Of a stretch of DNA of 32,000 nucleotides, positions 2,827 to 11,935 are shown piece after piece (the first letter of the stretch is position 1; each line of letters opens with the position of its first letter). A program made the translations under genes and the position numbers. Below the pieces are notes generated by a model. The model did no database searches. It saw only the letters and a program-made list of their open reading frames with translations, and was not told the origin of the DNA. This stretch comes from Planctopirus limnophila DSM 3776. Lineage in GTDB: Bacteria > Planctomycetota > Planctomycetia > Planctomycetales > Planctomycetaceae. Location of the stretch: assembly GCF_000092105.1 (NCBI RefSeq), contig NC_014148.1, positions 4,650,001-4,682,000 on the forward strand. The letters run 5' to 3'.

Positions 2827-2901
2827 GCCTTTCGCTCAAATACTAATCCCCGCGTCTGATTCACCTGGCTGACACGCTTTCCAAGAAATCATCTTGCTCT
2901 A

Positions 2902-2970
2902 TGTGCCATGCTTGCAGCTCTGGGCAAGCATGTCTTCACACCTGACAGCGGCTCACACCCCTTCCAGGAG
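2902..2970 (+). repeat. Family-A intergenic hairpin-plus-tail repeat, copy 1 (tail diverged)
   Basis: tgtgccatgcttgcagctctgggcaagcatgtcttcaca... has a 9-bp stem CATGCTTGC/GCAAGCATG around the loop AGCTCTGG. The hairpin is identical to the copy at 17925-17961. Confidence 0.8.
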
Positions 2971-2977
2971 CTCAATA

Positions 2978-3463
2978 ATGAACATCGAGGATATTGTAAT
3001 GAACAACAACACTGACTTACTGCACGACTACCTAAATACCCACGTAAACAATAAAACAGAGCTTAACTATGCATTGTCAGTGGCCACAAGGCTCGGAGAC
3101 GCACAAATAATAAAACAGATTCTTGATAGTGGAGCCCCCCTGAATGTGTACTCCAGCAAAAACATGCCTCCGCTATACTGCGCAATAGAAAGAGGCGATG
3201 TAAACCTTGTAAAATTATTGTGTGAACATGGTGCGGACGTCAATTATCAAGCCGCTGAGACGATCTCTCCTCTTCATTGGGCAGTTGACACGGAAGCTGA
3301 CGGTGCATACCAAATGGGAACAGTCCCGAGCGTAGAGATTATTCGATTGCTTCTAGAGTATGGCGCAAACCGCAACGCGACTAATAGAGATGGCACACCA
3401 TATAATATGGCTCTACGGTATGAGTTTACTGAGGCATGCGAGTTACTCAAACCTCAACCTTAA
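2978..3463 (+). CDS. Ankyrin-repeat protein (about 161 aa from the ATG at 2978; the ORF track starts it at 2894, inside the repeat)
   Basis: Ankyrin repeat signatures are present: LNYALSVATRLGDAQIIKQILDSGAPLN, PPLYCAIERGDVNLVKLLCEHGADVN, SPLHWAV, IIRLLLEYGANRNATNRDGTP. An AGGAG sits 8 nt upstream of the ATG at 2978. The gene lies in an AT-rich segment (about 38-43% GC in hand-counted lines). Confidence 0.75.
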   Translation: MNIEDIVMNNNTDLLHDYLNTHVNNKTELNYALSVATRLGDAQIIKQILDSGAPLNVYSSKNMPPLYCAIERGDVNLVKLLCEHGADVNYQAAETISPLHWAVDTEADGAYQMGTVPSVEIIRLLLEYGANRNATNRDGTPYNMALRYEFTEACELLKPQP

Positions 3464-3492
3464 CAAAATACTTGCCTTTCCATCGTAGCCGC

Positions 3493-3525
3493 GTAGGGTG
3501 GGTTAAGGCTCTGCGCAACCCACCA
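3493..3525 (+). repeat. Family-B hairpin repeat, copy A
   Basis: GTAGGGTGGGTTAAGGCTCTGCGCAACCCACCA has the stem GGTGGGTT/AACCCACC. It matches 4000..4032 at 32 of 33 positions. Confidence 0.8.
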
Positions 3526-3584
3526 GGTCTTCTCCACGCCTTTACCCATCAGCTTTTATCGTATGTAACCACTATCTGGCCCTG

Positions 3585-3995
3585 ATGAGGGTGTATGAAA
3601 TGAAATGGACGGACGTTCTTCTCAATAAGATCCCAATTGAATCCATTTACACAAAGATTCCGTCGCTGGTCGACGTACGACTGCACGAAATGCAGTTCCA
3701 CCAAGATGGGCCAAGAGTATCGTTACGATTCGATCCTGCTGAGTACCCTGACAATCCTCCCCGGAAATGGATTGTCCAGAAATTCGATCAGGCACAAATT
3801 ACATTGGTCCTTACAGATGTCAGTCAGTTAAATGTACTTGGCTGGGGTGTGAATAACATTGGTGACATAATGATGAGCAGAAGTGATGAAGGCGTCTGTG
3901 TGAAATTTGTGGGTACATCGATGCAAATGAACTGCTGTGCCCGATTCGTGAATGTTGAGAGAATTACGGGGTATTGTCATGTAAGGGAATCATAG
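3585..3995 (+). CDS. Small cytoplasmic protein resembling Imm50-type polymorphic-toxin immunity proteins (alternative start ATG 3600, MKWTDVL...)
   Basis: The sequence is MKWTDVLLNKIPIESIYTKIPSLVDVRLHEMQFHQDGPRVSLRFDPAEYPDNPPRKWIVQKFDQAQITLVLTDVSQLNVLGWGVNNIGD. The pattern (MKW start, hE..f..dGP.v.lRFD, P..PP.KW, q.qi.L....v..l...GW) matches my memory of Imm50 (PF15594) members. It has not been verified by a search. Confidence 0.6.
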   Translation: MRVYEMKWTDVLLNKIPIESIYTKIPSLVDVRLHEMQFHQDGPRVSLRFDPAEYPDNPPRKWIVQKFDQAQITLVLTDVSQLNVLGWGVNNIGDIMMSRSDEGVCVKFVGTSMQMNCCARFVNVERITGYCHVRES

Positions 3996-4142: not shown

Positions 4143-4643
4143 TCACTTTTTTCCGCGGGATCTTTGTAATCGAAAAAACTCCTGCAGAATCTCTTTGCAT
4201 TCCTGAGCCAGTACACCGCCCAGAACAGCGCAGCGATGATTGAGCCGGGCGTCGTCGGTGATCTGATAGAGAGTATGGCAAGCTCCCGCCTTCGGATCTG
4301 TGATCCCATACACCACGCGCGGAATGCGGGCCTGCACAATCGCACCGGCACACATCGGGCATGGTTCGAGTGTGACATAGAGCGTGCAATCTTCCAGCCG
4401 CCAGTCACCAATCACTTCGGCGGCCTGAGTAATCGCGACAATCTCGGCATGGGCCGTCGGATCTTTGAGCTGCTCACGCTGATTCCACGCCGCTCCAATG
4501 ATCTGATCGTCTTTGACAATCACGGCACCAATCGGCACTTCTTCTTCGGCAAAGGCCTGTTGAGCCAGATCGAGCGCCTGCCGCATCCATCGATCATGAG
4601 GCTGCAAAACGTGATCGAACATGTCGGAAAGCTGTTGGGTCAT
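4143..4643 (-). CDS. tadA: tRNA adenosine(34) deaminase
   Basis: Contains the CDA-fold zinc motifs HAEIVAI and [11 protein letters not shown], then VVYG..DPKAGA and a C-terminal ...[10 protein letters not shown]. The start is taken at the ATG at 4643 ([11 protein letters not shown]), giving 167 aa. The longer track ORF, running to 4775, passes through a low-complexity heptad repeat. Confidence 0.85.
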
Positions 4644-4650
4644 GGGGAGG

Positions 4651-4777
4651 TTTGGTATTTGATGTTGGGTATTTGATGTTTGATGTTGGGCACTTGAAAT
4701 CGATGAGTTCTCAGTCTTCATCAACAATACCAAACGCCAAATACCAAATACCAAATACCGAGCACCAAACGCCAACC
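4651..4777. repeat. Two inverted arrays of 7-bp periodic repeats: a TTGG-type array at 4651-4692 and a CCAA-type array at 4729-4777
   Basis: 4651-4692 reads tttggta tttgatg ttgggta tttgatg tttgatg ttgggca. 4729-4777 reads accaaac gccaaat accaaat accaaat accgagc accaaac gccaacc. The second array is approximately the reverse complement of the first. The whole structure sits directly upstream of the tadA start. Confidence 0.75.
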
Positions 4778-10483: not shown

Positions 10484-10588
10484 TTCCGCATGATCAATCC
10501 TTCAGAGTTCTTCAAATCGTAACGACAGAGAGCTGTTCCGAGAGAGTTCCCGATCGCTTCGCTATGCTTGTCGCAACACAAGAAAGAA

Positions 10589-10628
10589 CTGTTGTTTTCT
10601 GAATCAACCTGTTGTTTTCTGAATCAAC
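10589..10628 (+). repeat. Perfect 20-bp tandem duplication (ctgttgttttctgaatcaac, two copies) at the 5' edge of the low-GC cassette
   Basis: The two units at 10589-10608 and 10609-10628 are identical when read directly. Confidence 0.9.
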
Positions 10629-10701
10629 TCAGTGCAGTGTAGAACAACTGAACGAACAGCTCTCAGGCAGTTTTGCGGGAATTGAAGCGATCGAATCACC
10701 A

Positions 10702-11553
10702 ATGTTGAACTTTGGGTTCTGGAATACCTATCGCAAATCACTCGTTGAGCCAGTCATCGAGTGGGTTCATGAATTCGAACTGAATATTGTGCTTTTGGCG
10801 GAATCGACTCTTTCGTCTCAATCTCTGGCGGAAATGCTGTCCATTTCGTCAGGGCAAGTTTGGAGTTATCCGAAAAATCCCATTCGTCGATTTTGTGTGG
10901 CGTATCGAGAGCCTCTGCTATCTTTTGAACCAGTGTATGTCGACCGGAGTGAGCGTGCCCCGTTACTCGAACTTCGCACTGGCCATGAAACGCTTCTGAT
11001 CGCACTGGTCCATCTGCCCTCACTGCTGCACCGTGACGAAACCGATCAGGATATCATCATCTCAGATCTCATCAGCCGTATCGACGAGCAAGAGAAGTTC
11101 GCAGGTCATTCCAGAACGATGGTGATTGGCGACTTCAATTTGAATCCGTTCTCCCGGCAAGTCATCGGCGCTAACGGGCTGCATGCCACCATGTCTCGCC
11201 AACTGGTGAAAAAAGGCTCAAGAACAGTTGACGGTAATGAGCGAAAAATGTTCTACAATCCCATGTGGCGATTTCTCGGAGATGATGGCGAACATCCACC
11301 CGGCACCCATTTTTACAGATCATCGACATCGAATGCCTATTTTTGGCATGTGTTCGATCAGGTACTCTTGAGAAATGAACTGACAGATCGATTGGTTGAC
11401 CTGAAGATTATTACAAAGCTCAACTCCTTCAGCTTGCTGAATGACTCTGGGCAGCCAGATCGCGAAAATTTTTCTGATCACTTTCCTGTTGTCTTGAAAT
11501 TAGCATCGCCTGTTTCCCAAGAGGCCCCACATGGCAACTTCGCAAATTCCTGA
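10702..11553 (+). CDS. Endonuclease/exonuclease/phosphatase (EEP, DNase-I-fold) family protein with no signal peptide. The track ORF starts at TTG 10612; ATG 10702 is preferred.
   Basis: All EEP catalytic motifs are present in order: MLNFGFWN (Asn), IVLLAES (Glu), LVHLPS (His), MVIGDFNLNPF (Asp/Asn), FDQVLL (Asp), FSDHFPVVLKL (Asp-His). GC is about 42-45% in hand-counted lines. Confidence 0.75.
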   Translation: MLNFGFWNTYRKSLVEPVIEWVHEFELNIVLLAESTLSSQSLAEMLSISSGQVWSYPKNPIRRFCVAYREPLLSFEPVYVDRSERAPLLELRTGHETLLIALVHLPSLLHRDETDQDIIISDLISRIDEQEKFAGHSRTMVIGDFNLNPFSRQVIGANGLHATMSRQLVKKGSRTVDGNERKMFYNPMWRFLGDDGEHPPGTHFYRSSTSNAYFWHVFDQVLLRNELTDRLVDLKIITKLNSFSLLNDSGQPDRENFSDHFPVVLKLASPVSQEAPHGNFANS

Positions 11554-11935
11554 TCTGTGGTCTGATCAGATTCTGCCAGCCGTCGCGACACCAAAATCTT
11601 TATTGGAAATGCAGGCAAAAAAACTCGCCACACATACCAATGGATTGGTGGTCGCGGAAGTAACCAAGTCAGAACGCTCTGCAGATACCATTTCCCATCA
11701 TCTCGTTGTGCGAGCACCTGCCCGGAACTTCTCACAGGAAGTCCTTGAAATTCGCCACCATAAAATGGTCGTCTATCCTTGCACTATTCATGCGGAAGAG
11801 CTGGAAAGTGAATTTGCTGACGAAGCCGAGGCATATAGCCCTCAACAGGTTCTCGATGCACTCGCACAAGTTCTAAAGTCACCTCGAATTGTCGCACTTG
11901 TCAATTCCCTTGTTGCCCTCAGCAATGACGACTGA
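11531..11935 (+). CDS. Hypothetical 134-aa protein; its start overlaps the EEP gene stop by 23 nt
   Basis: It has an ATG start and an unbiased, non-repetitive composition (MATSQIPDLWSDQILPAVATPKSLLEMQAKKL...). It is the only ORF over this interval in any frame. I recognise no family. Confidence 0.55.
   Translation: MATSQIPDLWSDQILPAVATPKSLLEMQAKKLATHTNGLVVAEVTKSERSADTISHHLVVRAPARNFSQEVLEIRHHKMVVYPCTIHAEELESEFADEAEAYSPQQVLDALAQVLKSPRIVALVNSLVALSNDD

Follow-up and report, generated by a model that had tools for sequence, protein, structure and literature searches.

A small acidic protein accompanies an endonuclease/exonuclease/phosphatase-fold enzyme in a putatively mobile two-gene module of Planctopirus limnophila and other bacteria

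Introduction

Toxin-first type II toxin-antitoxin (TA) systems, nuclease toxin/immunity pairs, enzymes of the endonuclease/exonuclease/phosphatase (EEP) fold and two-gene anti-phage systems are the closest described counterparts of a gene pair that we analysed in Planctopirus limnophila DSM 3776. The pair lies in a 32,000-nt stretch of contig NC_014148.1 (positions 4,650,001 to 4,682,000 of the forward strand; hereafter the window, in which all P. limnophila coordinates are given) and encodes an EEP enzyme followed by the product of a second open reading frame (ORF), ORF2. An earlier note on this DNA, made from the letters alone, had proposed that the two genes form a toxin-immunity or defence-type module. 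Our analysis gives good support to a mobile, co-evolving two-gene module that is apparently undescribed, and makes the pair, on sequence grounds, a credible candidate for a toxin-neutraliser or phage-defence system. With a probability of about 0.5, we read it as a mobile toxin-neutraliser module in the style of type II TA or toxin-immunity systems, probably serving abortive infection or exclusion.

Like this pair, toxin-first type II TA systems (higBA, hicAB, rnlAB) consist of two small co-directional genes with overlapping or abutting frames and a better translated downstream gene, and they are patchy, mobile and fast evolving, occurring at variable chromosomal sites, on plasmids and in prophages. 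The definition of such systems as adjacent co-transcribed genes that are inherited together agrees with the adjacency, spacing and co-divergence of EEP and ORF2. However, the proposed toxin is an EEP phosphodiesterase of 270-300 aa, a fold for which no TA family was found, and ORF2 carries no helix-turn-helix, ribbon-helix-helix, AbrB, Phd/YefM or other DNA-binding domain, while a stable fold, without any match, is predicted for it. Nuclease toxin/immunity pairs (colicin DNase-Im, barnase-barstar, C-terminal domains of polymorphic toxins with their Imm proteins) share with EEP-ORF2 the order of an enzyme gene followed by that of a small acidic single-domain partner, as well as co-divergence and occasional arrays of partner paralogues. 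They differ from it in that this EEP has neither a delivery or translocation domain nor a linkage to secretion, and ORF2 matches no Pfam Imm family.

Tdp2, the LINE-1 endonuclease, ExoIII/APE1 and DNase I/CdtB have the fold and the catalytic constellation (N, E, H, D/N, D, D-H) in common with the EEP of the pair, but their identity to it is 12-17%, it has motifs of its own (FYNPMW, W215 and GDFNxNPF), and none of them has an ORF2 partner. The two-gene anti-phage systems collected in PADLOC and DefenseFinder resemble the pair in being compact operons of an effector and a small protein in prophage integrase/repressor regions, and some EEP-ORF2 loci lie beside retron, McrBC, AbiU2-HEPN, restriction-modification (R-M) or Mokosh genes; unlike these systems, EEP-ORF2 has no PADLOC match and its chromosomal copies sit mostly among housekeeping genes. 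The EEP mentions in defence papers concern only inactive EEP domains within ARMADA ArmC (PMC12458937, PMC13463889). Full-text searches of open-access papers that treat EEP together with defence, TA or immunity turned up no description of the EEP-ORF2 pair; they extended neither to newer DefenseFinder models nor to papers outside open access.

The EEP and ORF2 genes are tightly linked

The pair consists of the following features in the window:

10702..11553, plus strand: EEP gene (ORF1), 283 aa from ATG; another possible start is TTG 10612 (313-aa ORF)
11531..11935, plus strand: ORF2, 134 aa, an acidic partner protein with a fold without match
11531..11553, plus strand: EEP/ORF2 overlap of 23 nt, the EEP 3' end over the ORF2 5' end
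11519..11524, plus strand: Shine-Dalgarno-like AAGAGG of ORF2, 6 nt before its ATG and within the EEP coding sequence

The two same-strand ORFs and their 23-nt overlap at 11531-11553 agree with the earlier description. The NCBI entry 'Endonuclease/exonuclease/phosphatase [Planctopirus limnophila DSM 3776]' has the same sequence as the EEP protein (100% identity), and because this entry and all homologues agree on ATG 10702, this is almost certainly the true start and TTG 10612 is probably unused. The 23-nt overlap is also present in Planctopirus hydrillae and in a Planctomyces sp. metagenome-assembled genome (MAG), and we propose that it serves translational coupling.

The four EEP homologues inspected first came from metagenomes and Clostridium sporogenes, and directly downstream of each we found an unannotated gene for a protein of 130-150 aa that aligns with ORF2. 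The EEP-anchored set comprised about 110 loci from at least 15 phyla. In 87 of 89 genome and metagenome loci searched with hidden Markov models (HMMs) of both proteins, the next gene downstream of EEP, in the same orientation, codes for an ORF2 homologue; the two exceptions are cut by a contig end. Among viral contigs from IMG/VR, an ORF2 homologue followed in 22 of 24, and the exceptions were one cut locus and one distant EEP. The reverse adjacency, from ORF2 to EEP, rests on nine ORF2-anchored contig look-ups, and in 9/9 EEP lay directly upstream, with short contigs retaining only the 3' end of the gene. The constant adjacency to EEP genes on which the earlier note had made its proposal depend was therefore seen from both sides.

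Mostly -26 to +22 nt separate the EEP stop from the ORF2 start; L083 and L086 are unusual in having about 335-345 nt between the genes. The pairwise distances of the two proteins were correlated in a mirror-tree comparison (r=0.72 over 82 loci; Mantel, 0/2000 permutations), and the nearest neighbour was the same locus for EEP and ORF2 in 38/82. These patterns of adjacency and divergence lend good support to the view that EEP and ORF2 are a functionally coupled, co-evolving unit. The rival assumption of conserved core genes without co-variation, named in the earlier note as fatal to its proposal, was not borne out.

In one Desulfobacterales locus (L015, 2771-4175), three tandem, diverged ORF2 paralogues stand behind a single EEP gene. 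A 417-aa protein from a Logan assembly (P0156; L089, 381-1634) was considered as a natural EEP-ORF2 fusion and rejected: a 1-nt frameshift falls in the SDH motif, and the canonical ending ...HLPLFFSITL* is found in the +1 frame, pointing to a pseudogene or an assembly or sequencing error.

Translation and decay patterns suggest a protective partner

The Shine-Dalgarno sequence was stronger at ORF2 than at EEP in 82/100 loci (median -7.0 vs -2.75 kcal/mol; Wilcoxon p=6e-13). The anti-Shine-Dalgarno duplex in P. limnophila likewise has -5.8 kcal/mol at the ORF2 start vs -1.7 at the EEP start. This asymmetry suggests that ORF2 is made in excess. Both genes are nearly always intact across loci. 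The EEP of L035 ends before the SDH motif while its ORF2 is intact, and that of L089 is frameshifted at SDH and read through into ORF2; an intact EEP beside a decayed ORF2 was never seen among the loci examined.

The Shine-Dalgarno asymmetry and the decay pattern fit the toxin-neutraliser reading, as do the ORF2 array, the order of an enzyme followed by a small acidic partner, and the mobility described below. The first gene would encode a cytoplasmic, catalytically competent, Mg2+-dependent EEP phosphodiesterase, most likely cutting nucleic acid. The second would supply a small acidic folded protein, translated more than the enzyme, that would bind EEP and hold it inactive; many nuclease inhibitors are acidic, as is ORF2. 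EEP would be freed by loss of the cassette, by shut-off of host translation, or by a phage factor that titrates or displaces ORF2, and the freed enzyme would damage DNA or RNA, so that growth or phage replication would stop. The toxicity, the physical neutralisation, the trigger and the substrate are the parts of this scheme that we infer.

Strict two-way co-occurrence and co-divergence would fit equally well an obligate two-subunit effector, in which ORF2 would be the sensor, activator or specificity subunit that switches on or targets EEP upon a phage or foreign-DNA cue. EEP would then be inactive by itself, and the pair would serve defence while lacking the autotoxic logic of TA modules. 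In favour of such an effector are also the fast evolution of both proteins, the variable insertions and C-terminal extensions in ORF2 subfamilies (P0107, P0032, P0121), and the nature of ORF2 as a stable, well-folded domain rather than a disordered, labile antitoxin; moreover, the diversified paralogues in L015 could be alternative sensors. However, a stronger ribosome-binding site, acidity and retention beside a decayed EEP are more typical of a protective partner, and ORF2 has no recognisable ligand-binding or NTPase motif in Pfam, NCBIfam, PADLOC and fold searches and no recognisable DNA-binding motif. We regard this alternative as rather unlikely.

The first gene encodes a divergent EEP enzyme

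All six EEP motifs quoted in the earlier note are present:

10711-10725, plus strand: EEP motif FGFWN
10792-10806, plus strand: EEP motif LLAES
11005-11022, plus strand: EEP motif LVHLPS
11128-11148, plus strand: EEP motif GDFNLNP
11353-11370, plus strand: EEP motif FDQVLL
11470-11490, plus strand: EEP motif FSDHFPV

The gene product is a member of the EEP superfamily by sequence and by its fold, a four-layer alpha/beta sandwich. It matched Pfam PF03372 (Exo_endo_phos) with 25.5 bits against a gathering threshold of 24.5 (E=1.3e-5; residues 37-290 of the 313-aa ORF), and several homologues carry a precomputed PF03372. In an alignment with 20 homologues (numbering from ATG), E34, H104, D144, N146, D219, D259 and H260 never vary, and at least 90% of the aligned sequences keep N8. 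The AlphaFold2 (AF2) model of the enzyme has a predicted local distance difference test score (pLDDT) of 90, and with this model Foldseek returned 285 PDB matches at E<=1e-3, the top 50 of which are all EEP enzymes and nucleic-acid phosphodiesterases. The best folds were Tdp2, the LINE-1 endonuclease, ExoIII, EEPD1 and DNase1L3 (E 1e-12 to 1e-10, template modelling (TM) score 0.5-0.6); Tdp2 came first (E 1.9e-12, TM score 0.57-0.64, 17% identity), with the other four nearly equal. In a profile search of PDB sequences, only positions 2-160 of 271 aligned with ExoIII chains (E 2e-6 to 1e-5), and the EEP profile also had weak sequence matches to Angel2 and Nocturnin. No NCBIfam Xth/Nfo-type equivalog matched EEP and, judged by sequence, the enzyme is not a member of the ExoIII/APE1 (Xth) family. 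The intact catalytic residues together with the structural matches point to a divergent clade of nucleic-acid-processing EEPs.

Public annotation calls the EEP gene at 196 aa in P. hydrillae (L001, 7433-8023) and at 194 aa in the Planctomyces sp. MAG (L002, 6001-6585). Truncation was rejected for both, as complete ORFs of 282-283 aa are intact, which suggests that gene finders mis-start this gene of low guanine-cytosine (GC) content.

The absence of a signal peptide or transmembrane segment from EEP, already remarked on in the earlier note, was borne out: no hydrophobic segment was found in EEP or ORF2, the maximum 19-residue Kyte-Doolittle score being 1.08. The catalytic core begins at residue 2, with the first core strand, and neither a signal peptide nor a trafficking domain of PAAR, Rhs, LXG, MIX or similar type was seen at the N-terminus in the alignment, the AF2 model or the hydropathy profile. 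This lack of a delivery domain or signal peptide speaks against an interbacterial toxin-immunity module, in which EEP would be a secreted cargo nuclease effector and ORF2 its cognate immunity protein, and so do the missing recurrence of secretion-system genes among 124 immediate neighbours and the presence of the pair in the lysogeny modules of prophages and in phyla whose secretion repertoires differ greatly. Although the toxin-then-immunity order and tight coupling would suit it, the L015 paralogues resemble immunity-gene arrays, and Imm50 and ankyrin-repeat genes occur in another low-GC islet of the window, we consider such a module very improbable.

ORF2 belongs to a large unannotated family

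Comparison with P. hydrillae gave a dN/dS of 0.038 for ORF2 and 0.069 for EEP. The comparative alignment thus contains the coding signal that the earlier note's proposal needed, and by this measure ORF2 is a real gene. The note had called the protein unknown, which is right in that it matches no family and no fold. A lineage-specific orphan it is not: the orphan status suggested by a single match in a word-indexed search was overturned by an exhaustive phmmer search of 1.84 billion cluster representatives, of which 598 passed E<=1e-3 and 35 passed E<=1e-10. Family members are nearly all 130-180 aa long and acidic (median pI 5.2; pI <6 in 85-96% of members). No Pfam domain or informative name was present on any member examined, and searches of Pfam, NCBIfam, PADLOC and PHROG with ORF2 gave no match either.

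W10, P21, Y82 and P83 are invariant in the family. The AF2 model of ORF2 (pLDDT 93.8) begins with an extended N-terminal segment, in which the invariant Trp lies (consensus IPDLWP), and continues with a helix, a sheet of five strands and a C-terminal pair of helices. Foldseek found nothing significant against the PDB (best E 0.046, TM score 0.2) or against BFVD (best E 0.007, TM score <0.5). One subfamily (P0107, P0032; 251-280 aa; L120, 4001-4843) has a conserved C-terminal extension of about 120 aa with the motif YHEILDS...GWG and still has an EEP gene upstream; the extension could be a sensor.

The pair is patchy, widespread and probably mobile

A scan with the EEP alignment, using one genome per GTDB species, detected EEP relatives in at least 574 of 185,579 species genomes. 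Among the matches listed, the phyla are Planctomycetota, Acidobacteriota, Cyanobacteria, Chloroflexota, Gammaproteobacteria, Desulfobacterota, Myxococcota, Verrucomicrobiota, Gemmatimonadota, Bacteroidota, Spirochaetota, Armatimonadota, WOR-3, Hydrogenedentes and Poribacteria, with Bacillota added from other searches. A DNA-level search of 5,426 complete Escherichia coli genomes found no homologue, and a tblastn search of PLSDB with ORF2 gave no match.

The order lutA-lutB-EEP-ORF2-isomerase is shared by three genomes (P. limnophila, P. hydrillae and the Planctomyces sp. MAG). The lutAB and isomerase flanks are confined to Planctopirus loci, about 100 other loci having different neighbours. 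The GC content over 10589-11935 is 47.7% (EEP 47.9%, ORF2 48.5%), compared with 56.4% for lutB and 55.5% for the isomerase gene, and falls under the 5th percentile (49.8%) of same-size windows across the 32,000 nt. GC at third codon positions is 52% and 42% in the two genes vs 64-68% in the flanks. The composition is hence atypical relative to flanks of 55-56%, as the earlier note had said, although its hand count of 42-45% was an underestimate. Between P. limnophila and the Planctomyces sp. MAG, dN is 0.40 for EEP and 0.43 for ORF2 vs 0.04-0.06 in the flanks, and within the genus the amino-acid divergence of the pair is 7-10 times faster than that of the flanks, which may reflect either accelerated evolution or allelic replacement.

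Copies on mobile elements were found in several taxa. The pair sits between early genes and terminase in a Clostridium estertheticum phage-plasmid, occurs on Bacillus plasmids, and in another copy abuts IS66 genes. The eight nearest genes on 19 non-redundant viral contigs include integrases (6 members) and many CI/Cro-like repressors and anti-repressors. The integrase/repressor, or lysogeny, region is the usual site of lysogen-expressed protective genes. Atypical GC, differing neighbours, and prophage and plasmid carriage together support the horizontal mobility of the pair, and the horizontal acquisition suggested in the earlier note gains support from the same observations.

Cassettes with a possibly different partner also occur. 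On Bacillus mycoides plasmid pl395 (L094, 4986-9266), a clear EEP member (E 4.7e-69) is preceded by a prophage lysis cassette, and the effector and reverse transcriptase of a retron Eco8 system come after it. Its downstream partner of 262 aa was not significant against the ORF2 HMM (hhalign probability 3%), aligning over a short segment at the VYP motif. In Acinetobacter phage vB_AbaSI_1 (L093, 4516-6952), a distant EEP relative, split by a frameshift, directly follows the integrase and precedes a 151-aa protein (phrog_24185) and a 330-aa protein (phrog_4962), neither with an assigned function. The 151-aa partner was not significant against the ORF2 HMM either (hhalign probability 8%), and the short aligned segments of the two partners fall on the VYP and C-terminal helix motifs of ORF2. 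The Acinetobacter phage cassette may be related to but distinct from EEP-ORF2. In an Acidobacteriaceae MAG, two contigs (L083, 1-6154 and L086, 703-6858) share a 6.1-kb segment of 99.3% identity; the EEP-ORF2 pair is near the end of this repeat, with a 100-bp repeat nearby, and the segment could be a mobile element or an assembly duplicate.

Carriage by phages raises the alternative of a phage-benefit or anti-defence module, in which a PDE12-like EEP would break down the DNA of the host or the nucleotides of its immune signalling and ORF2 would be a timing inhibitor. The EEP superfamily includes 2',5'-phosphodiesterases such as PDE12. The 24 IMG/VR viral contigs, the phage-plasmid copies and the weak matches to Angel2 and Nocturnin are compatible with this function; however, most occurrences are chromosomal with no phage genes nearby, and the prophage copies occupy the lysogeny region, which is typical of lysogen-expressed protective morons. 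This makes the module highly improbable in our view.

The chromosomal setting bears on yet another explanation, a housekeeping or accessory enzyme of nucleic-acid repair or processing with an accessory subunit (Tdp2-like 5'-adduct removal or ExoIII-like end processing). Its best arguments are the structural matches to Tdp2 and ExoIII/APE-type repair enzymes, chromosomal neighbours that are mostly housekeeping genes, and synteny under purifying selection within Planctopirus. A patchy occurrence at variable locations, atypical GC, carriage on prophages and plasmids, a divergence far above that of the flanks and the missing Xth/Nfo-type equivalog match argue against it, and we give it little chance.

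Weighing the toxin-neutraliser reading

Several observations count against a toxin-neutraliser or defence module. Neither EEP nor ORF2 matched any family at E<=1 in PADLOC-DB v2.0.0 (5027 models); the earlier note, too, had known of no named defence system of this composition. The Shine-Dalgarno asymmetry could partly be a general habit of internal operon genes, and the asymmetric decay, with EEP lost and ORF2 kept, amounts to 2-3 cases. The EEP fold also includes phosphatases and lipid phosphodiesterases. No recognised DNA-binding motif was found in ORF2 by Pfam, NCBIfam or its AF2 fold, and the protein is predicted from its model to be compact and stable, unlike the labile, autoregulating antitoxins of classical type II systems.

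The genomic neighbourhoods weigh on the same side. The 124 immediate neighbours outside Planctopirus match 174 different Pfam families and are mostly of housekeeping function (carbamoyl-phosphate synthase, tRNA synthetases, MetH, ABC transporters) with few defence genes, and secretion-system genes did not recur among them. A minority have PADLOC matches (among them type II methyltransferases, one type IIG R-M enzyme, MkoA/MkoC and AriA-like proteins), several of them generic (ABC, PolA), which leaves the association with defence islands apparently weak. The islands envisaged in the earlier note do appear at single loci: apart from the retron Eco8 locus, one chromosomal copy adjoins an N6_N4 methylase and an AlwI-type restriction enzyme, one adjoins HEPN_AbiU2 and McrBC, and one adjoins MNT/HEPN genes; most loci have housekeeping genes around them instead.

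It is possible, though we hold this tentatively and with more doubt than confidence, that EEP-ORF2 is an undescribed, widespread anti-phage family, serving abortive infection or superinfection exclusion, in which a partner of new fold restrains a Tdp2/ExoIII-like nuclease via its invariant N-terminal Trp motif and releases it on infection. If the toxin-neutraliser reading is true, bacterial conflict systems would gain a new effector class, the stand-alone EEP nuclease, with a regulator or inhibitor of new fold, and about 600 50%-identity clusters of 'hypothetical proteins' that have no Pfam, NCBIfam, PHROG or PADLOC model would gain a testable function. A specific protein inhibitor of a Tdp2/APE-like EEP would be of interest to structural biology and a possible tool. 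The family is easy to test, with two small genes and homologues in a Klebsiella-labelled MAG, Clostridium and Bacillus.

The leader contains a strain-specific duplication

Two further features lie upstream of the EEP gene:

10484..10701, plus strand: leader/promoter region of 218 nt, from lutB to the EEP gene
10589..10628, plus strand: perfect tandem duplication of the 20-bp unit CTGTTGTTTTCTGAATCAAC (two copies), in the leader

The perfect 20-bp repeat reported in the earlier note was confirmed (TRF score 80, 100% matches), but it is not part of the gene: with the true EEP start at 10702, it falls in the leader, 74 nt upstream. The P. hydrillae leader has one copy of the unit, so the duplication is strain-specific to P. 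limnophila. A consensus scan found no sigma-70-like promoter or terminator in the leader, RNA structure was not significant (z=0.15), and inverted repeats of 10-11 nt were near chance by a rough estimate and not nested. Excluding the 20-nt indel, the leaders of P. limnophila and P. hydrillae (L001, 6974-7171) share about 96% identity, a conservation that equals or exceeds that of the neighbouring core genes and is above that of the coding DNA of the cassette (89-91% nucleotide identity). This conservation suggests a constrained regulatory region.

A second low-GC islet in the window

Another islet of low GC comprises 2894-3995 on the plus strand and 4143-4775 on the minus strand, and holds the lowest-GC 1347-bp stretch (start 2851, GC 0.471). 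It encodes an ankyrin-repeat protein (2894-3463, plus strand) and an Imm50 immunity protein (3585-3995, plus strand; E 1.6e-39), with no toxin gene in sight beside the Imm50 gene in this islet. The product of the minus-strand gene at 4143-4775 matched MafB19-like/dCMP_cyt_deam deaminases (E 3e-46) and may be a TadA-like housekeeping enzyme.

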